Source: Psilocybe cubensis
Taxonomy: Eukaryota
Assembly: GCA_017499595.2 (NCBI GenBank)
Contig: CM038998.1
Span: forward strand, 3,844,001 to 3,908,000
DNA: 64,000 nucleotides
Direction of reading: 5' to 3'
How positions within the stretch are numbered: the first letter of the stretch is position 1; each line of letters begins with the position of its first letter. The position numbers and the translations under genes were made by a program. Shown piece after piece: positions 25,543-64,000 of the stretch. The notes under the pieces were generated by a model that saw only the letters and a list, made by a program, of their open reading frames with translations, was not told the DNA's origin and ran no database searches.

Positions 25543-25636
25543 GGCGCTGTAGTGTAGTGGTTATCACTCAAGATTCTGATATCCTTGAAGAAGCCTTGAT
25601 GTTCTTGTAACCCCGGTTCGAATCCGGGCAGTGCCT
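25543..25636 (+). tRNA. tRNA-Gln(CTG) with 22-nt intron (25580-25601)
   Basis: Acceptor GGCGCTG/CAGTGCC, A box TAGTGTAGTGG, anticodon stem CAAGA/TCTTG with TT-CTG-A loop, T arm CCCGG-TTCGAAT-CCGGG, downstream oligo-T. Confidence 0.95.
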
Positions 25637-25855
25637 CTTTCTTTTTATTTATCAATTTCTTCCTGAAACTTTTACCAGAACGCATTATGAGGACGACCAA
25701 CAGGATGGTGGAAATGAGTCGGGATACGTTTTTTGTATGTAACGTTCAGAGACATGACAGGAAGGAGTGATCGACACTTTCTATTTAAAGCTCTAGCCAA
25801 ACAACATGTAATGAAATACACCTTTCTGCCACGTCCAAGTTAGTTTACACCCATC

Positions 25856-30401: not shown

Positions 30402-33400
30402 ATGCCTCATCTCCCAACAACGGAGGACGACGCGGAAGAGGCGACTACGGTATGCTGCGGGTATATTATCTTGCATAATACACACGCGCATTCTAACCGG
30501 TATCGATAGCGTTCGCAAGTTGATCCCACTGTCTCCAGGTCCCGCCCGTCCTTCTTCAACCGGTTGAAGGGTGCTTTCAGATCGAGGTCTCCGAGTCGTG
30601 AGGCTGCCCCAGCTGCCGGTGTACTCTCCAGGTCCAGGAGAGAGGTCTTCCAGAGAGACGATCAGGTATGCTTTTAATTTGACCGCAAGTGTTCAATCCT
30701 GTCATGTTTTGATGATGTAGAGTGACGTTGGAGATATCAATTTGGGAAGGTCAAGAGCAAGCAGCGTTCAATCGCTTCCTCAGATCAGCGTCGAATCAGA
30801 ATCACCCTTGCATGGCAATGAGGTAGGCCAAACAATCTGTAGCTGACTTCGTTGACGGCTTAATTGGTTACTTGAAGAGGGTTCAATCTCGCTTGGAAAC
30901 AAGAGGACGTGGCAAGGCTGTTCAGGTGCGTACTGTTCAGGATATCCAGCTGCCACAGATAATCAAATTCCAGCAAAGAATGCCACGCCTGGTATATCAT
31001 CATCTGGGACAGTGCAATCTTCTGCTCAGAATGCGCAGGTCCGTTTGATTTTGGCCGTTTTTTCAGTGTAATTCATTCATCTTTTTGGCAACACAGCCCA
31101 GTCTGAAGACAAGTTCTCTGGACCCCGCAGTTGTGGAAGCAGCCCGCACAGCTGCATTGCAGACAGCCATTGAAATGAAAGGCGGCGCTGCACCAGTTTC
31201 TGGAATTACTCCAGGAATCAGTGGGATGGGCAGTTCAATCGACGTTGGCCATTTTATGTCATCTTTTCTCAGCACATTGTCCAAGTTCAATTCTGCCGTG
31301 GACAAAATCGCACAGGTATGGTATTGCTTTTTTAACAACTTTTCTTTTTTTTTAATAATATGTATTGCGGCTAGATTCATCCTTACGCGCAAGCTGCATG
31401 GACAATCCTTTCTTTCGCATCCAAGGTATGTTTTGCTCGTATAGTTATTCTCTAGACCCGGTTTTTAATCTATCATTAGGCAATTGTAAACCAGGATATC
31501 CGCGATGGCTCGATCCTTACATTATTGAAAAAGATGGATGCTGTGTACACTTTTCTCACTGCAGCGGATTTACGGGATATTGAATCAATGAAGGGCATCA
31601 TAGAGAAAATCTGTCACCAGACATTGGAGTGCTCCTACTTCATACGGGAATTTTCTCAGAATACAAAATTCCGTAAGTAATCCTTGTCGATGAAAGCACT
31701 TTTTCATTGAATCATCTCTGGCTCAAGGGATGAGGTTGCTCAAGAACTTGCTATCTGATACGGATGATCGCGTACAGGAGTTTAGCAATGTCTTTGACGA
31801 TCTTTTGCAGCAGTTTCGGGACAAGGCCGCCCGCAGCACGCTGATCGTGGTGCATCGTATCTGGGAAGACATCGCCGAGCTAGGTATGCTTGATTTGATG
31901 TTAATTCTGTGTGATGACTCTAAATCAAATCTCCAGCGCATGACTCCGACTTGCAGCACATGCCCTACGTTCAAGGTGCAGGCCTTAACCTTCAGAAAAT
32001 CTGCCTTGAGGGGACCCGGGAGCAAATTCTCAAGGATATCATTGATTGGGTCAATTTGAATGGCCAGGATGACACGTCTCGCATTTTCTGGCTCCACGGT
32101 AACGCCGGAACTGGTAAATCTTCAATCGCACATACCATCGCTAACTACTTTGAAAAACTGGGACGGCTCGGGTCCTGCTTTTGCTTTGATCGCAACAAGT
32201 TTGCGGAGGAACGGCATAACAAGATATTTACAGTAATTGCCCAGGATCTCGCACACACAGACAAGAATATACAGAAAGAGCTGGCGGGGATTGTGCACCT
32301 CAACAAGGCACTCAGCAATACAAGTGACATTATACAACAATGGAGAGAGCTTGTGGTGAAGCCTATTTGCAAACTGTCCGAATCGATGGTTGGGCCTATT
32401 GTAATCGTCATCGATGCGTTGGACGAGAGTGGGAACCCGGAATCACGCAAAAACCTGCTTCGTATTCTCGCTGGAAAGTTGAAAGCTGATAATGACAGTC
32501 ATGTCTCGAAGCTTCCGCCAAATGTTCGAATCATTCTTACCTCGCGAACATTATCTGACATATACAACACCTTGAACGACGTTGATCACGTCCATTCAGT
32601 TGCAATGGATTCCATCTCGACCACCTCGACCGCAAGTGATATTGCTTACTATATCTCTGAGGAGTTGGAGGATATCGAAATCAGAGGAAATGACGTGTCT
32701 CGGCTTTCCTCTGCTGCGGGTGAGTTGTTCGAGTGGGCTCGTCTGGCATGTGCATATGTCAGAGGAGACGATGATGCTGGAACGGATGCAAAGGAGCGCC
32801 TGGAACATCTTTTGGTACGCACTGAAGACGCGGGTGTGCTTCTTGACAAGATGTATCTGTTGGTCCTCGAGACACTTCTGCCCAAGGACCAGCCACTACG
32901 CCCTATGCGCCTTCAACGATTCCTTTCTGTGATATCCCAAATACTTGGGAGTGCGGAGCCGCTAACTATGGACACTTTGGCCTCTATGAGGCGCTACTTT
33001 CTTGATAATGGTCTTGGGATAGTTGATGTCCGCACAATCATCAAACCAATGGGTGCACTGCTTAGTGGGACTACCGATCCATGTGCTGTAATCCGTCCGC
33101 TCCATGCGTCGTTCCCGGAATTTTTGTTGGATGAAAAACGAAGCGGCGAATTCTTCATTGACATGTCCCGTATTCACGTTGACCTTGCAACTGCATCACT
33201 ATCAATCATGAAAGAGCAACTTCGATTCAACATATGCCAGCTGCCGAGTTCTTATTTGCCAAACTCTGAGGTTGAGGACCTTGATCAACGGATTAACGAT
33301 TGCATATCTCGTGAATTATCGTACTCTAGCCGGTTCTGGACAAACCACTTGCAACTCGCGGAATATCATGTCATTCTTGTAGATGCTATGCGAGAATTTT

Positions 33401-36033
33401 TCAATCATGAACGGTTACTCTTTTGGATTGAAATCTTGAGCTTACTCAAGTTGGTGAATACTTGTGCTCAAGCGATGTGGAGTGTTATTAAATGGGTAAG
33501 TGGTGGCAACTGTTTTCTAATTGTTCAAGCATGTGCTAATATACTACAGTCTTCCACAAATTGTGCGGATATTGCTGATTATGCATCAGATGTGCAAAAA
33601 TTTGTTCGGATGTTTGGTGGTGCGATTGCTCACAGTACCCCACATCTTTACCTGTCTGCACTCCCGTTCTCGCCTGAAAACTCGCATATTAATCAGGCAT
33701 TTGGGGACCGATTCTGCAAGATGCTTCGTATGGATTCTGGCAGGAGCATTGATTGGCCGGTTCTACAAGAGACTTTGAAAGGCCATGAGGGCAATATTAA
33801 TTGTGTTGCTTTTTCACCAGATGGGAAGCACATTGTTTCTGGCTCAAATAATAGAACTCTAAGACTATGGGATGCTGAGACTGGGGAGCAGATTGGGGCA
33901 CCTCTTGAGGGTCATGAGCATTGGGTGTGGTCTGTTGCCTTTTCACCAGATGGAAGGCATATTGTTTCTGGCTCATTAGACAAGACCCTAAGGCTATGGG
34001 ATGCTCAGACTAGAGAGCAGATTGGAGCACCTCTTGAAGGTCATCAAGATTGGGTATGGTCTGTTGCCTTTTCACCAGATGGGAAGCATATTGTTTCTGG
34101 TTCACGTGATAGCACACTAAGACTATGGAATGCTGAGACTAGAGAGCAGATTGGGGCACCTTTTGAGGGTCATCAGAGTTTTGTGCAGTCTGTTGCCTTT
34201 TCACCTAATGGAAGGCACATTATTTCTAGTTCAGATGACAAAACACTAAGACTTTGGGATGCTGAGACTGGAAAGCAAATTGGAGCACCTTTTGTGGGTC
34301 ATCAGGATTCTATGCAGTCTGTTGTCTTTTCACCTGATGGAAGATGCATTGTTTCTGGTTCATATGATCAGACACTCCAGATGTGGGATGCTAAATCTAG
34401 ACAACAGAGTATCCCTTTTAAGGGTCAACATGGTTTGGTGCAGTGTATTGCCTTTTCACCAGATGGAAGGCATATTGTCTCTAGTTTACATAACAAAACA
34501 CTAAGAATTTGGGATGCTAGGACGAGAAAGCAGATTGGGATACCTTTTGAGGGTCATCAAGATTGGGTGCGGGCAGTTGCCTTTTCACCAGATGGAAGGC
34601 GCATTGTTTCTGGGTCAGATGATAAAACACTGAAGTTATGGGATGCTAAGACTGAAGAACAGATTGGAATACCACTTGAGGGTAATCAGAATTTTCTACA
34701 GTCAATTTCCTTTCCATTATCTGGAAGGCCCATTATTTCTAGTTTACAGAATAAAACACTAAAGTCACCTGATGCTAAAATTAAAGAGCAGGTTAGAATA
34801 CCTATCAAGGGACATTTGGATAATATATTGTCTATTGCCTTTTCACCAAATGGCAGGCAGATTATTTCTGGTTCACAAGACAAAATATTAAGGTTGTAGA
34901 ATGCTGAGACTGGAGAGCAGATTGGGTCAGCTTTTGAGGGTCATCAAGATAATGTATGCTCTGTTGCTTTTTCACCAGATAGAAAGTGCATTGTTTCTGG
35001 CTCATCAGACAAGACAATAAGACTGTGGGATGCTGAAACTAGAGAGCAGATTGGAGCACCTCTTAAGGGTCATCAAGATTGGTTAGAATCAGTTGCTTTT
35101 TCACCAGATGGAAAATATATTATTTCTGGCTCATATGACAAAACATTGAGGCTTTGGGATGCTAAATCTGGAAAGCAAATTGGAGCACCTCTTGAGGGTC
35201 ATCAGGATTGGGTGAGAACAGTTGCCTTTTCACCAAATGGAAGGCACATTATTTCTGGTTCAAATGACAAAACACTAAGACTGTGGGATAGTGAGACTAG
35301 AAAGCAGATTGGAGCACCTTTTGAGGGTTATAAGCATAATATATGCTCTGTGGTCTTTTCACCAGATGGAAAACATATTGTTTCTAGCTCACAGGATACA
35401 ACACTAAGATTATGGGATGCTAAAACTAGAAAGCAGATTGGGGCATCTTTTAAAGGTCATAAAACAGTAGTACAATCTATTGCCTTTTCACCAGATGGAA
35501 AGTACATTGTTTCTGGTTCATGTGACCAAACACTAAGGCTGTGGAATGCTAAGACTGGAAAGCAGATTGGGGCACCTCTTGAGAGTCATCAAGGTTGGAT
35601 ATGGTCTGTTGCTTTTTCTCCAGATGGAAAATACTTTCTTTCTGGTTCTTCTGATACTATACTCCGGCTATGGGATGTTGATATTTCCATAAATCAAGGC
35701 AGTGCCATACATAATTCCATTCTTTTTTCATCACATCCACAATTTTCTCTTTCTAATATTGATATCAATCAGAATGTAAACATTTTACTTAATAGTCAGA
35801 TTTTGTACAATCCTTTATTGTCTACAAGTTCAAGTCATCCTTGGAATGGGAATGGATGGGCAGTTGTTAAATCTGCTAGTTCCAGTGGCAGGCTTTTATT
35901 CTTTGTTCCATCCATTTATACACTATATCAATATTGGCCACCCTCTCTTGCACTTATTATGCCTCCTCCTCCTCAATTAGATCTTAGTAAAATGGTCCAC
36001 GGAGAATTATGGACATCTATATACCCTAATTAA
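30402..36033 (+). pseudogene. NACHT-WD40 fungal NLR (HET-E/NWD-like), interrupted by TAG at 34897-34899
   Basis: Multi-exon N-terminus (AVDKIAQ|IHPYAQAAW), CLEGTR, Walker A GNAGTGKS, Walker B IVIDALDE, LHASF, STPHLYLSAL, 15 WD40 repeats continuing in frame past one stop. The 5' start is tentative. Confidence 0.85.
33775..35680 (+). repeat. 15 tandem WD40-coding repeats of about 129 nt
   Basis: Recurrent GGTCATCA...GTTGCCTTTTCACCAGATGG...ATTGTTTCTGG...TGGGATGCT...CAGATTGG units. Confidence 0.95.
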
Positions 36034-47932: not shown

Positions 47933-50146
47933 TCATCCTGAAAGGTCTTCCTCTACACAATCTCGAATCAATTTTTCAGCTGTCGAGCTTCTGGGTTCGA
48001 TCCTGCATTGAAAAGGGACTGGATATCTGGAGTGAAAGCAGTTTGCAAAACTCAGTACCCTATAATTCTACTGCATTGTGAGAATGGCTTACGAGAGAAA
48101 ACCACCGGCAAAGTTTGGTTTGAGTTGTATAGGATTCCCATGCTCATCTAAAGGTGGCTTGATATTGTATACCGACAATACAGAAGAGACAATCAAGTAC
48201 AAAGAATTGTCACTTAGATGTCTTCCTGGATATATGCTAACATAATAGGCATCAGCGTATACCCAAATCATACGGATTAATCAATTTCACTACTAACCGA
48301 CGTCCATAGCCAAACGCAGCGCAGTCAGGGCTTCTAACGCTGGGATCCAGTTTGCCGTTTTTCAAGTACCGTTCAGGTTTGTATTTCATTGGCTCAGAGA
48401 AAACCTCTGGGTCGTGCAAAATGCTCCTATATTAAAATGTTATTTCACCTTATTGTAAGTTAGAGTCTATAAGACAGACATACCACCCATTGGCCATTAC
48501 CACGGTACCTCGTGGAATAAAATATCCATCATACTCGTCGTCTTCGGTAGCCATATGACCTATAGCTAATAAACCGTTTGAAATATTATGCTCCGAAATT
48601 AATCAGTGTGGAACATAAAATACCTAAGGGTAAGACCTGGTTCCAACGCATGCTTTCTTTGATAACGGCATTGATGTATGGCAATGAGTCCCGGTCACTA
48701 AAGTCTGGCAGACGATGTGACCCAACTACGGCGTCCAGCTCGGCTTGCGCATTTCGTTGTGCATCCGGGTACATTGCCATGGCCAAAAAAAATGACTGCA
48801 CAGTAGAGACAGTCTAAAGCAAGGGTTTGATTAATTCAATTGCTTCGCTTTGTCAAACTGCTTAGCACCTACAGTGTCGGCTCCACCTGGTACACAAAAC
48901 AAATCAGATTTGAAAATGCTTTTTAAGAGAGGGATATGTACCAATATATGCAACGGCCGTCGTGTGCTTGGCAATCTGTCTTTCTTCAGAGTAAAGAGGA
49001 TCACTCTTGTCAGGCAGGTGGCTAATTAGCGATGTTGTCACTGAGGGTACTACCACTCTATTATGTTTCTACCCAGATTGTATTCAACACTTTTTTGAGA
49101 GAAAATAAAAAAAAAAAACATTACTCTTACAAGTTCATTTTCAATGTATTCAAACGGCTTATTAATGACATCGTCGTTGATTTTGCTCCAGTATGCGGCC
49201 TTCTTTTTGAATCCAGCTCCAGGGAACCAGGCCGGAACGTAGAGCAAAGCAGGAATAAGGTCGACTAGAAATGCACCTGGAATCCCTGCCTCTACAACGC
49301 CTTGGAGTGCTTTTTCTGCATTTGATATGTACGGATCGGACGAATCTTTAACAGTGATGCCATATGCTACGCCCATAATGATTGATGATAATGCACTATA
49401 ACAGATTCAGCAACCAGAGTGATGAATGCAAGTTATTAAAGTGACTTACTGTCGTATATGATGCATAAAATTGTCGGGTGAAACTAGAAGTCGATGAAGA
49501 AACACCCGAATTTCGCGTATCTGAGTTGGATGGTATATGTGAACTATGTTTTGATGGAAATGCTCATTGAACGCCTTTCTGTGGCGTCTCCACCATTGCC
49601 CGTAAGGAAGAAATGCCATGTTGTAACCCCAATTCATCCTGTTAACGGGTGTTAACAATATTGAAAAAAATCATTCTCAGCATTGCCTACAGCTCAAGAA
49701 TCATGGGCATGCGCATTCTGTCTGAATAGTTTGAAGATCGCTTATCGAGGAGGTCATTTGCTCGTTGTAAAGATCCTAGGATCAAAAGCGATTGACCGAG
49801 GACCTCAACATATATCATATCACCTGTAGTAAAAAGCAATAGTTAAATGGTGTTAATCACCAGCAGTGATATAGCGACTGTAAAAGTACATCATACCGTA
49901 TTTTTTGAACCATTGGTCATACACAATATGTGGGTTATTGACTGGTTGAGGAACGTCGAAGAGATTTCCGATTATAGGGTATCCTTTGGGTCCGGGAGGT
50001 AGCGGAAGATTATTGGGGTTGCGCTTGCGGGATTTATTCCAGACACCCCTTACAACAAACACATACCCCAGCGCAGCAGCAATTAAAGTATACAGTGGAT
50101 GGGCTAATAGCCTCGCAGACACCGTGGACAGCAAATCCAAGGGCAT
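47933..50146 (-). CDS. Cytochrome P450, tandem copy 2
   Basis: Same exon structure and motifs as copy 1 (ESMRW, FGYGR..CPG region). Confidence 0.93.
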
Positions 50147-50789
50147 TGCAGGCCTTAAACTGTTGAACCGGTTCCGTTTATGTTTAATTCCCTTCAGTGC
50201 TCGTCCTCAAGCTATTATATAATGAAAAAAATTCCCATTTGTTTAAAAATCCTTTTCTGATATTCTTGGATTGGTGGAATCTCACATGCATGCGAAAAAG
50301 GTGTCTGAAGGCTAAGGGGCCAACTTCCATTGTCCAAGTATACCCGCAGCTGTTCAAAATAGGGTGTTAAACTGATCACTGATAGTAGCATAATATCTCA
50401 CGTCAAAGGTACCGGAAGGAACATGGCATGATTCTGACTGTCTGAATGAATGGTGAGACTGGGCAACTAAATCATGGGGAAATTAAAAAAGATCGTACTT
50501 CAGGTTCGCGAGCTGCAGTGACAAACCTCCTTTGGATGCCCTACCAGAAACAAGCAACCCCTTCAAATACCGCTCCTCAAGTGATGAGGACTACAGCTGC
50601 GTTTTGAACTTGTCAAAACTCGAGCACATACTAATAAATGGCCAAGAACGGGAGGCTACGTCTTCTTCCCTCGAGAAGTTCAACTCCACCAACGATATAC
50701 AGTGATGTTATTTTAATATCCAAAGTGCACAGCCGGTGTCAGGCAATGTCTAATGAGAACACTGTGGCGTTTATAATTCAGCAACAAAA

Positions 50790-51032
50790 AAAACTACGGA
50801 GAACCCCTACCTGTGCCATCAGGATCGAGCGCCAACTGTCTCTCCCAGAGGGTGTCATTAACGGAGTTATTCCCACAATTGAGTTATTCCCACAATTCGG
50901 TTTAATCACTTGCAATCGAAAGATTCATATATAAATATGAACGCAATATACCGCCGCCCATACCGAGCCACTTCGTCGCTTCCTCGGAGTCCTTGAACTC
51001 GAAGGGTACGATAAGAACAAAAAACGCTTGAT
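50790..51032 (-). pseudogene. Decayed fragment of the 3' exons of the NCS1 permease
   Basis: CCCATACCGAGCCACTTC..GGAGTCCTTG (50957-50995) matches 57841-57879; CGGTTTAATCACTT and ACTGTCTCTCC are also shared in the same order. Confidence 0.75.
50864..50897. repeat. Perfect 17-nt tandem duplication GAGTTATTCCCACAATT x2
   Basis: Read directly at 50864-50880 and 50881-50897. Confidence 0.9.
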
Positions 51033-51432
51033 TTGAAGACCTCCCACATTGTATACTGTGATGCTTTGCTAAGTTGTCACAATCTCAACCATCCTGTGAG
51101 GAGCACATCACTTTCAGCACTCCAGAACACCGATTTATCGATACCAAGTAACAACATCTAAAAACAACACCTTACCTCGACTTGTCTTCTGCAATTATCG
51201 TCTTCTTTGCTGTGGCTGCCTGGGGAACATCACTTATTACATCACATACAAACAGTGATCCACCACGACTCAGTAATATTGGCAACATCTATGATTAAGA
51301 GATGAACAGAAGAAGACTGTAACAAAATCCATTGAAAAACATATCATCACCTCTGACTTGACCACATGGAGGGTGCAAACGCTACATCGTGACTAAAAAT
51401 GCCCCTCTGCTAACAGGGTTGTTCGAAAAGCA

Positions 51433-53632
51433 TCAGTGGTTGTGCTCCACATGATCATGGATTGATTGCTCTGCCGATTTGTTTCTAGGTTCAATTCTGC
51501 ATTTGAATGGGGCCGGATATCTATTATCAGACATTTGGGAGTGAGAACAATGGATTCACGATTGGTAGTGTGAAAGTCGCTTACGAGAGAAAACCACTGG
51601 TGAACTCGGCTTCAAGTTTTAGAGGGTTCCCTAATTCGTCGATGGGCGGTTTTATGTTGTACACTGACAATACGGAAGCTATAATCAAGTATAATGAATC
51701 GTCGCTCAAATGTCTTCCAGGACATATACTACATATTATGAGCATTAGGGTATTTCGAAGCAATGAAGCTGATATATCACATTCCTACTTACCGACGTCC
51801 GTATCCAAAGGCTGCACACTCTGGTTGCCTTGCATTGGGATCCAGTTTTCCATCTTTCAAGTATCGCTCCGGCACATACTCCATTGGATTAGAAAACACT
51901 TCTGGGTCATGCAAAATAGACCTATGACAGAATGTCCATTGATGTTACTGTAAGATACTACGTGGATCGACGTACCAACTGTTCCCCAATACCACTGGCA
52001 CCGTCCCTTGAGGAATAAAATATCCATCATATTCATCGTCCACCGTAGACATATGGCCAATAGCTGTTATCTTATCAGGAAGGTTACGCTATTGACTCGA
52101 CGCGGGCAGAAACGATACCTAAGGGTGCAACCTGGTTCCAGCGCATGCTTTCTTTTACCACTGCATTTATGTATGGTAGTGAATCACGATCACTGAAGTC
52201 TGGCAGACGATGGGGACCGACTACAATGTCCAGTTCTGCTTGAGCCTTTCTCTGTACCTCAGGGTACAGTGCCATGGCCAAAAAGAAGGTCTGTGCGGTA
52301 GATACGGTCTAAAGGATGGGTTAGATTGAATTTTCCGTTGCACCTTGTCATCCTCGCTTGGTACCTACAGTGTCTGCTCCACCTGGTGTATAATTTGAAT
52401 TACAATTCAATGAATACTAGCTCTCCAAAAAGGGGGGACATACCAATATATGCTACTGCGGCCGTGTTCTGGGCAATTTGCCTTTCCTCGGAATAGAGAG
52501 GATCTCTCTTTTCAGGCAGTCGTTCAATGAGTGATGTTGCTACCGATGGAACCAATGCTTTGCCATTTTTCTGTCCACATCATCTTTTAGCAATTCCTGA
52601 TCAGATAAAAGTGAAAATTGCTCCTACAAGTTCGTTTTCGATATATTCAAACGGCTTGTTGATGACATCATCATTGATCTTGCTCCAGTAAGCAGCTTTC
52701 TTTTTGAAACCGGCTCCGGGGAACCAGGCCGGAACGTAGAGCAAAGCAGGAATCAAATCAACTAGGAATGCACCAGGGATTGCTGCTTCCACAAGGCCAT
52801 TTAGTGCCTCTTCTGCATTGGATATGTATGGATCGGACGAGTCTTCGACGGTGATACCGTAGGCTACACTCATGATGGTAGAGGCAAAAGTGCTAAAAAG
52901 CGATTTACATTTAAGGTATCAGATTACTGATCACTGACTTACTGCCGTAAGTGATGCATAAAGCCCTCTGGTGATATAAGAAGGCGGTTAAGCAAAGCTC
53001 GAACTTCGCGTAGCTGGATTGGATGGTACTTGTTGACAATGTTGTGATGGAAGTGCTCATTGAATGCCTTTCTGTGGCGTCGCCACCATTGTCCGTAGGG
53101 AAGAAACGCCATGTCGTAACCCCAATTCATCCTGTATTCCTGTCAGTGACCAGAACTGCCTTGCAGAAAGTTTCAAATCAGACTTGCAACTCAAGTATCA
53201 TAGGCATGCGCATTCTATCCGAGTAGTTTGAAGATCTCTTATCGAGAAGGTCAGTCGTTCGCTGCAATGACCCCAGGACCAGAAACGATTGACCGAGGAC
53301 TTTGAAATAAATCATATCACCTGAAAAAGAATAGCAAGTGATTAGTCGAAATTCCTAATAGCAACGTAGTGATAACGGATATGAATCTTACCATACTTTC
53401 TGGACCACTGATCGTATACAATCCACGGTTTATCCTTCGGCTGAGGGACATCGAAGAGGTTTCCGATTATGGGATATCCTTTGGGTCCGGGAGGTAAAGG
53501 AAGATTCTTAGGATTGCGCTTTCGGGTTCCACTTCTAATAGCCTGCATAGCTAATCCATACCCTAGCACAGCTGCAATAAAAGTGTACAAAGGATGTGCC
53601 GCTAGACTCGCAGATAGCGATTGGAACGACAT
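51433..53632 (-). CDS. Cytochrome P450, tandem copy 3
   Basis: [38 protein letters not shown]. Confidence 0.95.
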
Positions 53633-54218
53633 GGCAATAAGGGAGAAAGCTGTCAAATCTCGTCCTACAACCGGTTGCATTTATGATCGATTCGCTTTCA
53701 TATTGACTCGTATTTCACAGGCTAGATTGTCGATGGAAAATGTTCCTATTCATTTTGTTATCCCACATTCGTGCGATAATGGAGTGGTAGCAGGTTAGGG
53801 AGCCGAGCATGCCCCAAGGGATGTTTCCCACCATCTAGGATTGAATAATTACCAGTAGAAGCGGTAGGGACGGGAAGCTGGGTTGAGTACATGACCGCGG
53901 AAGGTTGACAATTTAATGCGACCCCACACCCAGAATTTAAACCCCGCTTTAAAACCCAGGTCTTGATATCCGACATAAACTGAACGCCAATAGTAGGTGC
54001 GCATAGCCACTAACATATTATTTGCAGACAGAGCTTTAGAATTTCCATGACACCATTGCATGATGATACAGGAGACCTTTATGAACAAAATTCCACAAGC
54101 GAAAAAGAAAGCCACCATCGAAAAGCATGATATCGCTACTGCTCTGACCAGCGGACCACACTGGCTATCACCATCCTTGTGATACACCTAGCCAACAATC
54201 AAGTCACTCGCCAAATGT

Positions 54219-56406
54219 CTAGCGGTCTAACTCCACGATGTCTCGAATTAATTGCTCTGCTGAAGTGCTACGGGGTTTAATGCTGCATTGAAAAGGAACG
54301 GGATATCTGAAAAGAAGGCAATTATAAAATTGAGTATCTTATATTTCGACTGGCATTATTTTGACGGTGACTTACGAGAGAAAACCACCAGCGAAGTTGG
54401 GCTCAAGCTTTATGGGTTTCCCCAATTTATCAATTGATGGTTCTATATCGTATACCGACAATACAGAAGAGACAATCAAGTACAGTGAGTTGTCACTTAA
54501 ATGCCTTCCTGGACAAATTCTAGTGTTACGGGAATTAGTTCTTTCTGAAATGATATGGGTTATGTTATCTTTGTTACTCACCGACGTCCGTATCCAAATG
54601 CTGCACAGTCGGGACTTCTTACACTGGGATCTAGTTTACCGTTCTTCAAGTACCGATCAGGCTCAAATTTCATCGGCTCAGAAAACACCTCCGGGTCGTG
54701 CAAAATGCTCCTATGTCAGAATTTTATCTCGCGTTACTGCAAGCTGTGGTGTCTGAGATTGACGTACCACCCGTTTGCCAGCACCACCGTGCCCCGTGGA
54801 ATGAAGTATCCATCATATTCGTCATCTTCGGAAGCCATATGACCTATGGCTATGAGGCGGTTAGTATGATTGATGCACCTACTTAGTATGAAGATAATTT
54901 ACACAGTGGTAAGACTTGGTTCCAGCGCATACTTTCTTTAACTACGGCATTGATATATGGCAATGATTTGCGGTCGCCGAAGTCTGGAAGACGATGGGAG
55001 CCAACTACGGCGTCCAGCTCTGCTTGCGCCTTCTTTTGTGCCTCCGGATACATTGCCATAGCTAAAAAGAACGATTGCACTGTCGAGACTGTCTGAAATT
55101 GAAATCACTATATATAATGGGCTCTTGACAATACCTGGTACCTACGGTGTCTGCTCCGCCTGGTACACGATACAAATCAGATTTCAAACGTCGCTATGTA
55201 AAGAAGAATAAATACCAATATATGCCACTGCTGCCGTGTGCTGAGCAATTTTTCTTTCCTCAAAATAGAGAGGATCACTCTTGTCAGGTAGACGGCTAAT
55301 TAGTGATGTTGTCACTGAGGGTACCACTACCCTATCGTTTCTCTGTTCACAAATCTTGCAATTAATGTTTGCCTATTACACCAACAAAGAAATATGCTCT
55401 TACAAGTTCGTTTTCGATATATTCAAAAGGCTTGTTGATAACGTCGTCATTGATCTTGCTCCAGTAAGCAGCCTTCTTTTTGAATCCAGCTCCCGGTAAC
55501 CAGGCAGGGACATAGAGCAAAGCGGGAATCAGGTCAACTAAAAATGTACCTGGGATACCTGCTTCCACAAGGCCCTCGAGAGCCTTTTCTGCATTTGATA
55601 TGTATGGATCGGCGGAGTCTTCGACGGTGATACCATACGCTATGCCCATGATGGTGGAGGAAAACGTGCTATTGGAAAGGGTGAATATCAGCAGTCAGCG
55701 TAATGAACCCAAGTCGTATAAGTTGCTCACTGTCGTATATGATGCATAAAATTGTCCGGAGTTCTTAGAAGTCGGTAAAGAAAGGTCCGAATCTCGCGTT
55801 GTTGGATAGGGTAGTACTTGTGAACAATGTTACGATGGAAATGTTCATTAAATGCCTTTCTGTGCCGCCTCCACCATTGGCCATAAGGAAGAAACGCCAT
55901 ATTGTATACCCAATTCATCCTGTTGACGAGTGTTAGTGGGTCAAAACTCATTCTCAGAAATGAAAGGTTAAGCGTACAGTTCAAGCACCATGGGCATGCG
56001 CATTCTGTCCGAATAGTTTGAGGACCTCTTATCGAGGAGATCGGTCGCGCGCTGTAAAGATCCCAATATCAAAAGCGACTGGCCGAGGACTTCGATATAT
56101 ATCATATCACCTGAAAAGCAATAAGTAATCATTAACGGCGAGATGACAACCGAGGATGCACAACATACCGTATTTTTTGAACCATTGATCGTAAACAATG
56201 TGTGGACTATCCAGTGGATTAGGGACGTCGAAGAGGTTCCCGATCACAGGGTATCCTTTTGGCCCGGGAGGTAGAGGAAGATTCTTGGGGTTGCGTTTGT
56301 GAGATTTGGACCAGGAAGTCTTCACAAGCGCACACCCCAGTACAACAGCAATGAAAGTATACATTTGGTAGGCCATCAATTGCGTAGATACCAGCTCAAA
56401 GGGCAT
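54219..56406 (-). CDS. Cytochrome P450, tandem copy 4
   Basis: [38 protein letters not shown]. Confidence 0.95.
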
Positions 56407-57473
56407 CGTAGATGGAGTGAAATTATAGCTTGTGCCCGGGTTGCATTTTATGGTCGTTTTCTCTCCAGTACTGATCCTCGTATTTCGCATGCAAGTAGCA
56501 AAGAGACTCCGAATTCATTCCGAAAACTCTATTCTCGTGTGCTTTGGGAAACAGTGACGTCTTGAATTAATGCCACAAAAAGCGCCTGGAAAGTTAGGAA
56601 GACCTAGCTGTCCCGCAGCTGTTCAAAATAGACAAGTCAATCTGAATGTATTCAATCGGAGGCTTCGCTGACGATACTCTTGGCGATTTTTTAAGATACC
56701 GGAAGGAACTTAAGCTTGAATGATTCAGAAAGTCTGAATGATACGTTTGACTTTGAGGAAATGCAAATTAAGCGAGAGAGAGAACGTACTTCGTGTGCAG
56801 TGAACACTGCAAAGTCACAAGTTGCCCTGTGTCGCAAATTTTTCAATCTCCGCTTAAAGTGGCTCAACGGCAACCAAGACCAGCGCTTCCTTTTCTTGCA
56901 CTCCGGCAACTATGTGTCCAACTCTCTGTTAATCTCCCGAGTGTTAATTTCTAGCCAATTCATTCCTGTCGTCACTATTCAATAACAGAGTGCTCTGCGG
57001 TTTACGGTACCATAATACAAAATGAATGCCAGCGCCCCAACCATCGCGAACTTCTAGTACAGTAGCAAAAACGCCATCGCGGCCAGTGCCAGATGGCATT
57101 TGTATACTTAGACGATGGCGTTCCAGATCTATAAGTAACATGCAATGCAATGTCATGCTGCCATCTGAATCGAGCCATGTGAGGGAGTGTGCTAGTCCAT
57201 ATATCTGGATGATTTTCGATCAATTAAACTCATCTTGTCTGATGTCATAAAAAGCTGTAGACTCTAATAGCCAAGTTTTGCGACTTTCATCCTGGTGTGC
57301 CAGCTTGCAGGGTTGGTCATGAGTTGAAGGTCATATGAACTGGCTGAACTTGAAGAAGTTAAAAGGAGAATATAGTCTATGAGTTCGTGAATCGTAAGTA
57401 TGTACATGTCTAATCGTAGCGATAAGTGGTGGCGTATATGGTACGTGTAATATAAAATGACGTCGATGTGAAG

Positions 57474-57526
57474 GAGCTGGAGCTGGAGCTGGAGGATGAG
57501 GATGAGAATGAGAATGAGAATGAGAC
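57474..57526. repeat. Compound microsatellite (AGCTGG)3 + (GAATGA)n downstream of NCS1
   Basis: agctggagctggagctggaggatgaggatgagaatgagaatgagaatgag. Confidence 0.8.
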
Positions 57527-57653
57527 TGATAAGGATTAGGGGTGAGCTCCAGCCTTGAAATAAAATTACAAGAGGAATCAATACATCCTCAAAACGAAGC
57601 AATAAATGCATATGGCAGTAAAAAAAAGGGGGGCAAACACTAAAAAACAATGT

Positions 57654-60340
57654 CTAGGCGGCAACAGAGTAAACCGCAACAGGATCTTTGGTCTTCTCGT
57701 CCTCCGCGATCGAGGAACCGTCGTCCGACGAAGTGTTGACTCCTTCGACTGTCTCTCCGGGGAAAACACCTACAAAGCGGTTTAATCACTTTCGGCCGAC
57801 AGAGAATATAAATATAAATGCAAACGCACCATGGATCTCTCCCATACCGAGCCACTTCTTCGCCTCATGGGAGTCCTTGTATTCCTCAGGGACAATAGGA
57901 ACAGGGAAAAGTCGGTTGATGGCGTAGTAAGTAGCACCCGATAGCACAACGCTGATTATCCATCCCTGCAGACGATTCCGAGCCGTGTCAGAGACGCATT
58001 GTCACAGTGAACAAAAGCAGACGAAAATGATACTGACCATATTATAGATACGGTGTGCGCTAGCATCCATCTTCTCAGGGATATATGCCGCAACGAGTCC
58101 CTGAATGCGAATGAATATGAACAAAATGGTCTCGTACAATACATGCAAAGAGCGGTAGTACGCACAGGGAAGATAAGAGCGAACGAGACAAACCAAGCAG
58201 CGAACCCTCTCCAGTTATACCCTTTGGAGTACACGTAGATGCTGCTGGGGCTCTTGTCGAACATGGATCGCACATGGCTATTTCGATCTACTTCAGCACA
58301 GAGAATACTAGATGCCAGAACGAAATGACGCACTAGTTTCCTTTTCTAATGAGGAAGTCACCCCATTGGCAGCCGAGGAGGGCGCCCATCAAGAAAGTGT
58401 AGCTTCCAAGGAAGGTAAGGACTGGCGAAAAGTTAGTACTCGTGAAAGGGTATCCTGGCTTAGAGGTATCTCACAATCTTGAGCGTTGGAGCTAGATTGC
58501 ATTAAGACGTGAGCTTTTTTGGATAACATGCGCGTTAAAAGACGGCTACGTACAGGATTTGCCAGGGGAGAACGGGGAGGGAGACAAGGGTCATGAAGAT
58601 CTGACCTCTTACAATAGCTGGAATTTGGATTGATTAGCAAAAGATCCCCATGTGGCTATCTCTAGGAGAGCTTACTGAAGTAACCTATAGAGAAATCGAT
58701 TGTTAGAAACACTGCTACAACGTCCAAAGATAAGAATGCTTACGAGGGAACAACGCAGCAATATCAGCTCCGAAGGGGACCGAGTTGCAATAAGCATTGG
58801 TAACCATGACCGAGTATGCCACACCAACAGCAATGAAGAAGCTAAAAAGTACCAACAATTAATACCACTCCCAAAAAAAACAACAAAAGCGCTCACCATC
58901 CAAACCGAGTCTTACCATCCCAGTTCTCCTCCAACAAGAGCTGAAGCTGCTGCCAAATCCCCCACTTCGCCTCGCCTCCATATCGCGACTGGAGCGACGC
59001 CGCAGCGATAATACTGAAAAACGCAAACACCGACTTGCTCACGAAGATCGTGACGCCCTGCGGCCACCCAGCGTGCCTCGGCGCCTTCGCATAGCGCGAG
59101 ACATCGGACTGGTTGGTGATCATCGGCGCGACGGTGGCGAGGACCGAGTTGATAGCGCTCATCGACGCCCAGCCCAAAGACGACCCGGAGATGGGGGTCG
59201 GCTGCAGGATCGCAAAGCCTTTGAACCCGTTGGGGTCTGTTTGGCCGAGAACGGTGCACCAGACTGGGTTTCAGGTAGAGATATGTGAGTTCTGGTGGTA
59301 CTTGTTTGATAGGCGGGTGAAGAGGCTTACCGAACATGGTGAAGAAGGCGGCGAATGCGAGAATGACTCGGGCGGTGAAGACCGGGCGGAGGTTGGATGG
59401 GTGGAGCATGGCCAATGGTAACGAAACCGACCATGCCAGGAAGTCTGTCGGGGCATGAGCATGAATTAACAGATGGTAAAGATTTGCGCTCACAGTTCAG
59501 AATGGTTTTAGCATCTGTACCGGCTGAGGCGGGCACTGCTGGTGTCCAGTTGATGTATCGTGAGCCAAAGATGCAAATCCACATAACATTCATCATTTCA
59601 GCGGCGTAGTAGACCTGGATCGCACTATTCTCGGTGGTAAGCAGGAACCCGCCTATGTTTGGATTGGCGTATACTTACTACCAGACCTGGAAAATATTAT
59701 ATGATCAGAAACACGAAGACAGGGGAGAAGGCAATCAAACTCACAATGCCAATTAATCCACGAAGTACGACAAACCATTTGGAGCCTTTCGATCCGAAAG
59801 TAGGGCTAGGAAAAGTTGGTTTAAAACACGACTTATGGTCGGATGCAGAAACAGAACTCACCGAATCATTACAGGGAAGCCGACATGGTAATATGCGCCG
59901 AACGTAGCGTTAAGGCTGGCGGTATCGTCAGGTTTGAACACTTGATTTCGATAATTAAATAAATCTTACACAGCTGCCAGTCCGGTTAAAAAGCAACCAA
60001 TCAAGACTGGGGCAATCGTTTGGTTTACGGTAAGACCGATGCTGACGAAGGAGGCTGCCAAAGAAAAGAAAAAGTTATATATAGGTTTTGCTGGAGATAA
60101 CGAGCGAACGTACATCCCACACTCCACTGAAAGAGAGAGTCAGGGTTTGGTCGCTGCTACATTCCCAAGATAAAGACGTACCCAGCTGGCATCCAATGCC
60201 TGACCAGCCCATAGAGAGCTGTAGTTGTACCATGTCCAGTTTCGGGCCTCGGGAGGTGAAGGCAAGAGATCTTCGTTGGCGTCTTGCGAGGAGTTCCCAA
60301 CAGCAATCTTGGACGTGACTCGCTGGAATAGACCGGTCAT
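57654..60340 (-). CDS. NCS1 family nucleobase/allantoin permease (Fur4/Dal4-like), many introns
   Basis: NEDLLPSPPEARNWTWYNY, NQSDVSRYAK, FGADIAALFPRYFTIVRGQ, GYNWRGFAAW. Confidence 0.9.
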
Positions 60341-61459
60341 TGTGTATGAGACGTTGGAAGACTCGAACGAAACGTGAAGGACAGGACGACGTACCAACCC
60401 ACCTCAGCGACTCGAGTTATAAACAAACTCGAAGAAGCACAATCGGCCCCCGTCTATGATTTCAAGATAGATTGTTGGATTGTGAATGTACTATCTGTCT
60501 ATCGGCTGAGCGCTCCGTCTATCCAGACTGACTTGTGTATTTTGGATATCCACAGATTAAAGAAAGGAATGGAGCCGATAGGGGAGATATCCCGTCTGGT
60601 GATTCCCCGAAAAGGAATGTGTGAGCCGGAAACCATTTCCGTCGAGCAGAAACTTATCAGGTGGATTGATAAGGGATGAAAACAGTTGAGTAGGTGTGGG
60701 ATTCTGTGAGACTTTCCTGGAGGGATAAAACCATTTGGCAAAAAGTGGACGCGATTTGTGTGGTGGTTCGATAAACATGCCATTTTGGGCAGACAGTAAG
60801 AGAATAGGGTTTGAAGGACTTGAGATAAATAACTATACTTCATAAGTCCGTTCAGTATGTAACACCGAGTCGCCGAAAGAAGACAGAAAGGTTTCTCCGA
60901 ACACAGAAGAAGAGAAAGACCGATTACAAGCGTCATTTCGCCTCGCCACGCAGGATAAGAAGAGGTTATGGGTGAGACGGCGTATCAAGAATTCTAACCA
61001 CCAACTTGAATCTCGTTGAAAGGTGAGCACTGGTCCACCGAAGACTCAGGAGTGGTAAACGAGTGATAGCGATAGAGTGTCTCCTGTTGTGAGATTCGGA
61101 TAATGGCCGCTGATTTCAGATTGGAAAAGAAGCCGCTGGTTTAGCGCTGAGACGTACCTACACCATCCGGTGTTCTAGATGTGGGGTGATCAGAAGCGAT
61201 TAGCATAAACGGTTGATTAACGCTATCCAAAACTCTGGTGCTATGCTCCTTTCAAGGCTCCCTATTTTGTCCCTGGTGCCTTTGAGATAGAGTATCGGGG
61301 ACAGCTATGACGTCGAGTTATCGTGGTGGTCGAGAGCAAGGAATTTTCAATGAGCACACACGTAGCACGTGAATTGTACACGTTCATACGCGCAAATAAA
61401 CTGAAAAGTAATGTGGGATAGGACTGTCAGGAAATATCACCCCCCCTCTCGTGTAGTTG

Positions 61460-62420
61460 GATTATCGTCCGTCGATGCGTTGGCAAACAGTTCCCGGTGG
61501 TGTTCGTTCGTTCGAGCCCCGCACAGAGCACATGCCTTCCTGCTCGTGCGTCCCGGCTAAGCGTTGAGGGGGCAGTACAAACGCATCTTGGGTGCATGTA
61601 TCGTCTAGCACTCTAGACGGGGGTGGCGCAACCATACAATCTCTGAGTGGTTGCGACTGCAAGCGCCCGCGGGGCATTGCAACCTCGTCACCGAGGACGC
61701 GTTACTTCTAGCGCGTTAGCACCTTTGCTTGGAGACAAGACGGTGCGCGTAATATCCCATTGTGGGGATTACGGTGTATTCACGTTGATGCACAATTTCA
61801 TCCTCATCTAGGATGCAACGACAAAAACAGCTCACTCGCAGTAAGCTGTTCAGGAGACCACACGCTGTCCGTCTGCCTGTTTTTGCATCCCAGGTTTTGT
61901 TTTATGGCATATCGTCCAGTAATTTATTTCTTCTATTGAGCTCAATGTTCCGTAGACCCTCACAACTATCCATTTCCCGGAACAAGACGACAGAACTTAC
62001 CCCGCATAGTAGCCTTGCCTCTTCAAATCAGACCCACGATGAAAGAAAGAACTCGTCATCGAGGTGCATGGTGGGAATGTTTGTGACAAGCCCGAAGCCG
62101 AAGAAACGCCTGATGGGTTTGGCTGGCCTTTGAAAAGAAACAGAGGATAAATAATCATGGTAGAGCGTTCTTTCGTCCTGAGAGCCTGGACAATAAAAGA
62201 TGAGGTACGAAATGAAGAGGGCACTGGCTGAGTTGGGAGTAGAATGGAGTCCGTCGGGTTAGGTTTAGTTGCTGATTGTTCTGTCAAGCGTGACGTGACC
62301 AGTAACAATGGCACGCGGAACCGACTTGTAGCGGAGTCGGAAAGTGTTGAGTGCATCGCTGGTTGTCCTCGAACCACCACGCACTTGCTCATCGTCGTCC
62401 GCAGGACACTCATCCCCCCT
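61460..62420 (-). ncRNA. Candidate structured non-coding RNA, possibly telomerase RNA (boundaries and strand tentative)
   Basis: More than a dozen stems found by eye; telomere-complementary AACCUAACCC (62256-62265, minus) lies 9 nt 3' of a hairpin. Confidence 0.45.
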
Positions 62421-62722
62421 TCTTATCCCGTCTTCCGTGGTCTAGCGACACTTTTAGACGTTAGCCAGCTCACACAGGCCGCGACAGCCGCCTTCCCCCC
62501 TCTGTTAGGTCTTTTTCAAGATCTTTTCATCTTACTTTGGTCTCCTACCCCCACCCCTCAAAAAGCTTACGAAAAGCGTTCAAGTCTCTCCAGGAACACC
62601 CAAAATCACACCCATCGACTTTAATATCCATTTCGAACTCTTTTTCTTCTTCATTTATAACCTTTTCTTTTGTCATTTTTATTCCCCCTACCCCCCAACT
62701 CCACCTTCGTATTTAACCAAAC

Positions 62723-64000
62723 ATGCTTGGCCATCAGTTCGCCTACTCCGCGGCTCCCATTCGCAAAGTGAAGGAGGTTCAGTTTGGTATTCTTTCTCCG
62801 GAGGAGATTGTGAGTCTTTTCAACCCTTTTTCTTCGTCGCTTTCAATGCTGTGCTGACAAACACCCCCTTCTGACTCACAGAAAGCCATCTCCGTCGCCA
62901 AGATCGAACATCCAGAAGTCATGGACGAGGCCACTCATAAACCCAAGATTGGCGGACTGATGGACCCCCGTATGGGTACCATCGATAGGAATTTCAAGTG
63001 TCAGACGTGCGGAGAGGGTATGTCAGAGTGTCCTGGTCATTTTGGGCATATTGAGCTGGCAAGGCCAGTCTTTCATCCTGGTACGTCCTGGCCTAGCATC
63101 GCCGCAGACGCCGTGTGTTCCTACGATGCTTTTTCCATACAGGTTTCATCGTGAAAGTGAAGAAGATTTTGGAGAGTATATGTGTAAATTGTGGAAAGCT
63201 CAAAGCCGACATCGTGAGTCGCGTCGTTTTATTTGCTCTACTCGTTTCGCACCCCACCATCCAAATTTTCTGGGGGCTCTCTCCACATCCCATGGGGAAC
63301 CCCAAACCCGCACCACGTCAGTCTCTCGACAATCGAGGGCGTTCTTCCACCCGTGGTAGGGGATCGTAATGGCGCGCGTTTTTTCGGTCGCTTGACCGCC
63401 GCGTCGATCCCATTGCACCTGCCACGGGCACCGGTTGGACACGAGGTTGCGTGGTGAAATGGGGGGCTGAACGAGGAGTGCGGAAAAAAATCAAACACAG
63501 TGCCCATCGATCCGTAAAAGCGGGACGTGGGACTGTGGAGGATGGAATATTGGCCAACCACACTCGGCTGTGACGCAGCTGGAGATGTGAGTCTCAGGGC
63601 CCTGCACTTCGTATCTCGACCTATTTTGCCCCCTGTGTTGTCCGTTATTTTATGTTGCTCTTCATATCTTGTTCCGTATTTCTTTGCTGTAGACACGACA
63701 TACTGACGGTTTTACTTGACATATTCTCCTTTTTCTAAAAAAAAAAATCCACCGTCGCCGGAAATCATTGTCCCTCTTGAATTGACCTGACCACTAACCT
63801 GTGTTCACGTTTTAAGTCGGACCCCAATTTTGCGGAGAAGATTCGCCACATCCGTGATCCCAAGGCGCGCATGGCAGTTGTCTGGTCGCACTGCAAAACG
63901 AAGAATATCTGTGAGCCTGATGACCCCAAAGAAGAGGGCGCAGATCCAGAGGCTGAAGAAGGGAGGAAGCATGGCGGTTGCGGCCATGCGCAGCCTCAAA
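62723..64000 (+). CDS. RPB1: RNA polymerase II largest subunit, 5' part (exons 62723-62809, 62882-63080, 63143-63213, 63817-end)
   Basis: [57 protein letters not shown] (region A), HGGCGHAQP. Confidence 0.99.

Follow-up and report, generated by a model that had tools for sequence, protein, structure and literature searches.

A strongly folded noncoding element upstream of RPB1 in Psilocybe cubensis, possibly a young noncoding insertion

In a 64,000-nt stretch of the Psilocybe cubensis genome (contig CM038998.1, positions 3,844,001 to 3,908,000; hereafter the window, whose own numbering is used throughout), the spacer upstream of RPB1 holds a noncoding element at 61471-61904 with an exceptionally stable predicted fold. 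We tentatively read it as a discrete, young and lineage-specific noncoding insertion, most likely a low-copy retroposon resembling a short interspersed element (SINE) or a retroposed structured RNA of the RNA polymerase III (Pol III) type, lying on the plus strand. The element folds in a non-random manner, forms an island rich in guanine and cytosine (GC), is bracketed by a direct repeat, matches no known family and is absent from the related loci searched; retroposition, transcription by Pol III and the plus orientation are what we infer.

A GC island together with significant structure confined to approximately 61550-61950 marks out a discrete unit. GC content is 58-62% at 61450-61750, compared to approximately 45-50% in the surroundings, and a 150-nt folding scan of 60400-62750 reached z scores of -2.4 or below only at 61550-61950. 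The bracketing repeat is identical at 11 of 13 positions, its left copy ending 3 nt before the first helix and its right copy abutting the 3' T-runs. When 1711 random 417-nt intervals of the window were inspected, 14 (0.8%) had a repeat of at least 11/13 within 40 nt on either side. The signals pointing to the plus strand are a B-box-like GTTCGAGCCC, the lack of any T4 run on that strand between 61471 and 61879, the T5/T4/T4 series at the 3' end and the better plus-strand fold, which the folding energies favour slightly. The B-box of the internal Pol III promoter has the consensus GTTCGANNCC; the window contains three matches to it where 1.35 are expected, and of the two besides this site one sits in the tRNA gene at 25543-25636.

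Read on the plus strand, the RNA would begin with a weakly folded 5' domain bearing the B-box-like promoter element, continue into a wheel of 200 nt made up of the seven short hairpins, and end in an 80-nt 3' domain closing in T-runs. The component features are listed in Table 1.

Table 1. Component features of the proposed unit, by position in the window
Feature	Position	Strand	Basis or remark
Left copy of 13-nt imperfect direct repeat, TGGATTATCGTCC	61458..61470		Repeat search; possible target-site duplication
Proposed discrete unit, ~434 bp, GC-rich, noncoding, three closed domains	61471..61904	+ (tentative)	GC, folding, no Pfam or Rfam match
Left multibranch domain closed by GATGCGTT/AACGCATC	61474..61587	+	Pairing present; z not significant
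B-box-like GTTCGAGCCC	61510..61519	+	Exact consensus match, ~40 nt from proposed 5' end
Central domain, stem 61592-97/61788-93 enclosing seven abutting hairpins	61592..61793		Folding
Hairpin 1, 7 bp, loop 4	61602..61619		Helix table, perfect-stem list, minimum free energy (MFE) fold
Hairpin 2, 8 bp, loop 13	61627..61655		Contig breaks at 61619 and 61657 in run X3 flank it
Hairpin 3, 5 + 4 bp, loop 3	61658..61681		Helix table, MFE fold
Hairpin 4, 5 bp, loop 4	61683..61696		Helix table, perfect-stem list, MFE fold
Hairpin 5, 5 bp, loop 10	61697..61716		Helix table, perfect-stem list, MFE fold
Hairpin 6, 5 + 4 bp	61719..61746		Difference 61731 G>A of run X4 in loop-adjacent pair
Hairpin 7, 6 + 4-5 bp	61748..61773		Helix table, MFE fold; holds 61755/61767 G-U
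Linker hairpin CATCCT/AGGATG	61799..61815		Differences 61798, 61799 and 61804 of run X4 form the left-arm cluster
Right domain closed by GGATGCAA/TTGCATCC, with AACAGCT/AGCTGTT inside	61811..61890		z -3.16/-3.41
T-runs: T5 61880-84, T4 61895-98, T4 61900-03	61880..61903	+	3' end of unit
Right copy of 13-nt direct repeat, TGGCATATCGTCC	61905..61917		Repeat search

Folding of the element and searches for known families

Fold z-scores were computed against dinucleotide-shuffled sequence on both strands, with 100 shuffles for the 417 nt at 61474-61890 and 200 for the individual domains. The 417-nt stretch reached an MFE of -170.5 kcal/mol on the plus strand (z -4.21) and -159.0 kcal/mol on the minus strand (z -3.77), and on neither strand did any of the 100 shuffles fold as well. 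The central domain gave z scores of -5.67 on the plus and -4.62 on the minus strand (0 of 200 shuffles on each), and the right domain gave -3.16 and -3.41, respectively. The left domain alone is not beyond chance: its plus-strand z of -1.92 was equalled by 5 of 200 shuffles and its minus-strand z of -0.17 by 90 of 200. The central and right domains are therefore the real outliers. When MFE was regressed on GC over 318 segments of 417 nt spanning the 64 kb, the element ranked first on both strands, at -3.3 and -2.9 standard deviations, with the next-best segments at -2.4 and -2.5.

The first-pass annotation of this DNA, made by a model from the letters, had described seven abutting hairpins within one closing stem, flanked by two further multibranch domains, and had named a shuffled-background fold test on both strands as a check. 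The energies lie far outside that background. Every pairing it listed was found where it had been placed, in the sequence, the helix tables and the MFE structures. The minus-strand MFE structure of 61592-61793 is exactly this arrangement, with GTGCAT/ATGCAC as the closing stem and the seven hairpins inside it at spacings of 0-7 nt. The pairing of both flanking domains is present, but only the right one folds beyond background. The hairpins differ in sequence and no repeat of them occurs in the window, in agreement with the annotation's view that this is not a repeat array. G-U pairs number 10 of 112 on the plus strand and 8 of 104 on the minus strand, hence no orientation can be read from them, as had been remarked. 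Among the 54 listed pairs, 53 are of the Watson-Crick type, the sole G-U pair (61755/61767) forming on the plus strand only; the two strands fold alike for this reason, which is partly a matter of construction as complementary words had been picked in the first place.

A search of 61400-61960 against Rfam 15 returned no match at E <= 10, and the only matches at this threshold within 60000-63000 were two chance fragments of long noncoding RNAs (lncRNAs), both outside the element. The empty result excludes the ordinary identities of RNase P/MRP RNA, signal recognition particle (SRP) RNA, snRNA, U3, ribozyme, riboswitch and tRNA- or 5S-like RNA, and is in line with the earlier impression, formed by eye, that no U1, U3, RNase P/MRP or SRP consensus is present. 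At gathering thresholds the sole Rfam match in the whole window was the tRNA gene at 25543-25636. ARAGORN detected no tRNA in the element, and a tRNA-like fold of the left domain was not seen. The 8-nt exact core of the direct repeat suggested a hAT-type transposon as a candidate, which was rejected as the element ends without a terminal inverted repeat.

For homology searches that take structure into account, a covariance model (R1; 176 positions, 54 pairs, seven hairpins) was built from the window sequence entered twice. Blastn of plasmid and phage collections gave no match. A structure-aware exact pattern of hairpins 4 and 5 occurred at 66 loci in prokaryotic genomes and two in viral contigs; these are considered chance matches because R1 fitted only the 34-nt pattern there, with at most 17.7 bits, in DNA of 68-85% GC.

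The locus, its relatives and variation among strains

The window is eukaryotic and fungus-like, with short GT..AG introns of 49-74 nt. The spacer holding the element measures 2.37 kb and is flanked by two divergent genes, an NCS1-type permease gene to the left (ATG at approximately 60349, minus strand) and RPB1 to the right (ATG at approximately 62723, plus strand; first intron 62810-62881), the latter confirmed by RPB1 domain 1. A Pfam search of 14 open reading frames (ORFs) in the spacer assigned no family, the lone match (E 0.22) being noise. Contigs were available from runs X1 to X4. The contigs of X1 and X2 skip the introns of 49-74 nt that are retained by the DNA runs X3 and X4, each from another strain; X1 and X2 are therefore RNA-derived. 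The RPB1 RNA contigs start at 62369 and 62373, one start per run. No RNA-derived contig of X1 or X2 lies over 61379-62060, with both sides covered; this gap is not used here as evidence on expression.

Several other features of these contigs and of the window are recorded here. The minus-strand transcript at 60673-61378 has a GTACGT..ACAG intron, a contig depth above that of the permease exons and a 145-aa ATG ORF lacking a Pfam match; candidates for its identity are an extended leader of the permease mRNA and an independent lncRNA. Only X1 has a low-depth RNA-derived contig at 62061-62271, past the element and short of the RPB1 promoter block, which may stem from divergent transcription upstream of the promoter. 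Within RPB1, RNA contigs show a 603-nt GT..AG skip at 63214-63816 together with an unspliced contig across the same stretch, which may represent one long intron, several introns or intron retention. Further away, 31924-36033 holds a long plus-strand NACHT/WD40-repeat (NLR-like) frame (991 + 377 aa) in which numerous WD40 units are almost identical. The tRNA gene at 25543-25637 (plus strand, 94-95 nt, Rfam 54.1 bits) received no amino acid and a four-base anticodon call from ARAGORN and probably contains an intron.

Related loci were collected by a metagenome scan with RPB1 exon 2, which yielded 80 loci of 86-98% amino-acid identity, 40 of them with at least 2 kb of upstream sequence. Similarity of these loci to the window begins at 62293. 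Nothing like 60400-62290 was found in any of the 80 by blastn, by nhmmer with 61400-62000 or by R1, and R1 run against the window and the 80 loci returned only its self-match. Tblastn with the permease N-terminus and tblastx with 50000-62300 likewise revealed no counterpart of the element and no permease adjoining RPB1 in the 80 loci. The gene order itself differs: in 10 of the 80 loci RPB1 is preceded, at a distance of 3-6 kb, by a homologue of the gene that occupies 17.25-20.4 kb of the window. In the window 42 kb separate this gene from RPB1, and the interval includes NACHT-WD40 genes, the tRNA gene and the permease. Hence approximately 42 kb of the window has been rearranged or inserted relative to these ten loci, a lineage-specific change, and the element is part of this altered DNA. 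Two other loci carry the window's 6-8.4 kb gene upstream of RPB1. With synteny broken in this way, the absence of the element in relatives is weak evidence against a functional RNA, and as no orthologue was found, no compensatory change could be counted.

The same loci yielded two observations on the RPB1 upstream region as such. Five of the ten loci with the different gene order (L043, L051 and L054, noticed by a motif resembling a telomerase template, and L050 and L053, which lack the motif) have a coding sequence of the VHS type upstream of RPB1, as do L027 and L045; the window has no such sequence. A conserved noncoding block at 62293-62422 (extending to approximately 62599) is shared by 22 of the 80 loci with approximately 67-85% identity and spans the starts of the RPB1 RNA contigs. 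Its near-invariant motifs are AGCGGAGTCG and CATCG(T/C)TGGTTGTCC..AACCACCACGCA, and it contains a small palindrome, TGGTTG/CAACCA. The block is probably the RPB1 core promoter and leader, with a leader hairpin as a possibility.

Between X4 and the window, 60400-62290 differs by six single-nucleotide polymorphisms (SNPs), of which four (61731, 61798, 61799 and 61804) fall in the 311-nt core of the element and the others at 62150 and 62241. The core makes up 16% of that length, so that its share of four out of six corresponds to a binomial p of approximately 0.008, and counting the 7-nt cluster as one event leaves two of four. X4 also lacks 61389-61435, 47 nt situated just left of the element, and with it an AAATAAA at approximately 61393-61400. 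In X3 the region is represented by three contigs with breaks at 61619 and 61657 and an intervening 99-nt piece at half depth, a pattern that points to heterozygous variants on either side of hairpin 2. As to the effects on pairing, 61731 G>A breaks the plus-strand pair but leaves a wobble on the minus strand, and 61799 C>T retains its pair, as a wobble, on the plus strand alone. The change 61804 T>A disrupts its hairpin pair whichever strand is read, and position 61798 has no partner in the local hairpin. No double compensatory change occurs among these within-species variants, and variants are not depleted in the element, with very small numbers in both respects. On these very small numbers, the pattern is not what strong purifying selection for an RNA fold would be expected to leave. 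The first-pass annotation had judged that the region looks like a selected RNA structure; its non-random fold is confirmed, and selection finds no support in an empty Rfam search and in variants that crowd the core with none of them compensatory.

Competing explanations

Several observations weigh against a SINE-like insertion. No tRNA-, 5S- or 7SL-like head was detected (Rfam at E <= 10, ARAGORN), and the bases flanking the B-box-like site form no T-arm. A-box-like matches are uninformative, with 263 in the window against 249 expected, and the B-box count is not significant window-wide, as 14 of 100 shuffles also reach three. An A-rich 3' end is normal in retroposons mobilised by a long interspersed element (LINE); here the 3' end is T-rich (TTTTGTTTTA), an A-rich or simple-repeat tail is missing and no LINE was identified. 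The last closing helix includes the T5 run at 61880-84 and would be cut if Pol III terminated there. Neither the 64-kb window nor the related loci, 605,669 bases in all, contained a second copy of the element, and X4 is one unbroken contig across it, which argues against a near-identical copy in that strain. The bracketing repeat and the motifs were, moreover, noticed after the fact. The 11/13 repeat, itself a post hoc find, would supply the target-site duplication of a SINE, but the small-RNA-derived head and the A-rich tail both fail, and for this reason the element is not filed as a SINE proper. An unlikely though real possibility is an undescribed structured RNA restricted to this lineage, being either a new Pol III-type noncoding RNA (ncRNA) gene or the founding or sole surviving copy of a SINE-like family with a head derived from no known small RNA. 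It is no more probable that such an RNA would also use its 200-nt seven-hairpin wheel as a platform for protein binding or processing.

Should the fold be under selection, the element might instead be an orphan, lineage-restricted functional ncRNA gene of approximately 300-430 nt, transcribed by Pol III or as a small RNA polymerase II (Pol II) unit. This is an improbable reading but one to be taken seriously, given a fold with z down to -5.7 that ranks first of 318 segments, a GC-rich and sharply bounded unit with B-box-like and T-run signals on the plus strand, and hairpins that are mutually dissimilar with no repeat in the window. It is opposed by the lack of a counterpart in the 80 related RPB1 loci (a weak argument where synteny is broken) and by the variants, which crowd the core (four of six X4 SNPs in 311 nt, X3 breaks at 61619 and 61657) without any that compensates on both sides. 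The near-exclusive Watson-Crick pairing (53 of 54) and the likeness of the two strands count against it as well, as does the X4 deletion of 61389-61435, with which the sole TATA-like AAATAAA upstream of the unit is lost. The same strand symmetry is what would be expected if the palindromes arose and persist at the DNA level in a shared promoter, for instance by short-range template switching during replication, by which inverted-repeat arms are homogenised and lengthened, with the RNA fold as a by-product. Template switching is reported to create perfect hairpins and to expand inverted repeats near yeast promoters (PMC8794818, PMC13100816, PMC9435742). The element lies between two divergent transcription units, its stems are nearly all Watson-Crick and equally good on both strands, and the X4 differences at 61798, 61799 and 61804 form a 7-nt cluster in an inverted-repeat arm. 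Two of these three (61799 and 61804) would fit template switching, the window allele at both complementing the opposite arm AGGATG, and 61798 does not; an outgroup would be needed to polarise the X4 changes. However, seven unrelated, enclosed hairpins 0-7 nt apart would need many independent events within 200 nt, the remainder of the 64 kb has nothing similar, and both the GC island and the bracketing repeat are left unexplained. A DNA-level origin is rated as unlikely, if plausible.

A third possibility, which we consider rather improbable, makes the element the structured part of a minus-strand Pol II transcript, either a long 5' leader belonging to the permease mRNA or a lncRNA that starts further upstream, near the RPB1 promoter, acting in cis. 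That it would do so through translation, stability or transcriptional interference is held at the same low level. Directly downstream of the element on that strand, X1 and X2 contigs run spliced from 61378 to 60673 (intron 61157-61084), an X1 contig (62061-62271) lies on its other side, and the minus-strand MFE structure of the central domain is the exact hairpin wheel. Against this, no contig joins the pieces across the element, the minus-strand folds are worse than the plus-strand ones with the left domain at background (z -0.17), a T5 run with a terminator-like hairpin is found on the minus strand at 61851-61825, and the core-crowded variants, none compensatory, speak here as they do for an orphan ncRNA gene. 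It is very improbable that inverted repeats clustered here by chance in otherwise ordinary intergenic DNA. The region was picked by eye from 64 kb, and when perfect hairpins are simply counted in 200-nt segments, the value for the element is high but is equalled or exceeded elsewhere in the window; yet none of 200 shuffles reaches the central-domain energy on either strand, and the element ranks first of 318 segments on both.

The first-pass annotation had also raised telomerase RNA (TER). On that reading the element would be a central arm of a minus-strand transcript from approximately 62300 to 60660 with its template at 62263-62256. A template-like 8-mer, CCTAACCC, is present on the minus strand at 62256-62263, AUAAGU occurs on the same strand at 60657-60652 close to the RNA contig ends at 60673 and 60693, and the resulting length of approximately 1.6 kb is within the published range. 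AUAAGU is the variant 5' splice site used in TER 3'-end formation in Aspergillus species (PMC3603654). In the window this motif, only a 6-mer, is followed by a CTCAC-type branch-like site and an AG, but the U-run is 24 nt off rather than adjacent. The 8-mer is seen once against 1.0 expected, and 61 of 100 shuffles contain at least one. The template of approximately 1.5 repeats described for N. crassa and for U. maydis/U. bromivora is the 9-nt UAACCCUAA (PMC3592445, PMC9564094); in the window it is found only with one mismatch, 11 times against 10.9 expected. The U. maydis genome has 782 loci with a putative template.

A descriptor scan of 60400-62450 for P6.1 (4-bp stem, 5-nt NUNGN loop) found none on the minus strand within 62300-60660, the two minus-strand matches at 60650 and 60640 both being downstream of AUAAGU, and AGAG..CTCT was matched six times in the window and never in the element region. 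The transcript contains a fully spliced internal intron (61157-61084), and no Rfam telomerase family matches. Template-like motifs at a similar distance upstream of RPB1 on the minus strand of relatives were considered and dismissed, as they lie within conserved coding sequence and do not amount to conservation of a TER. The telomerase RNA reading fails the features tested and is regarded as highly improbable; with a template at chance frequency, no P6.1 and only coding motifs in relatives, the suggestion is not upheld.

Implications and comparison with known systems

Returning to the tentative reading of a young insertion, the consequences depend on what the element proves to be. Should it be no more than a young insertion or a set of DNA-level palindromes, the lesson is chiefly one of method: a fold with a z score below -5 and hairpins of textbook appearance can occur in unconserved, polymorphic DNA, and an outlying folding energy is thus no sufficient ground for naming a selected RNA or a TER candidate. 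If it were transcribed and conserved in the genus, it would add to the fungi a structured RNA outside present classes, or a SINE-like family that lacks a tRNA or 5S head, elements of a kind that is poorly catalogued in this group. Its position between the RPB1 promoter and the permease gene would, in that event, make it a candidate for a cis-acting influence on both genes.

Among known systems, the fungal TERs of the Pezizomycotina and Ustilago share with this locus a long ORF-free spacer, a nearby minus-strand 8-mer, AUAAGU downstream and structured arms; the locus differs in showing no 1.5-repeat template, no P6.1, no template conserved in relatives and no family match. The yeast RPR1 (RNase P RNA) and SCR1 genes are Pol III genes with a promoter-bearing leader. 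The element resembles this layout in its 5' segment of approximately 110 nt with a B-box-like element, followed by approximately 300 nt of structured RNA and then T-runs, and departs from it in matching none of the RNaseP_nuc, RNase_MRP and SRP models at E <= 10 and in being unconserved in relatives. With the inverted repeats attributed to template switching (PMC8794818, PMC13100816) it shares near-perfect arms, strand symmetry, a clustered arm variant and a promoter-proximal site; unlike them it has seven distinct hairpins set within further closing stems, a GC island and a bracketing repeat.

Fungal SINEs, represented by AfuSINE2 and AfuSINE3 of Aspergillus fumigatus, are 140-493 bp long, present in low copy and equipped with Pol III promoter features and target-site duplications of 4-14 bp (PMC5063351). 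The Psilocybe element differs from these in having no detectable tRNA or 5S head, a T-rich tail, no second copy seen and no partner LINE identified. It agrees with them in length (434 bp) and in its 13-nt repeat, and also in its low copy number, a B-box-like motif near the 5' end, a long body that is not tRNA-derived and a location in a gene-rich spacer. The degree of structure in that body goes far beyond usual descriptions of such elements.

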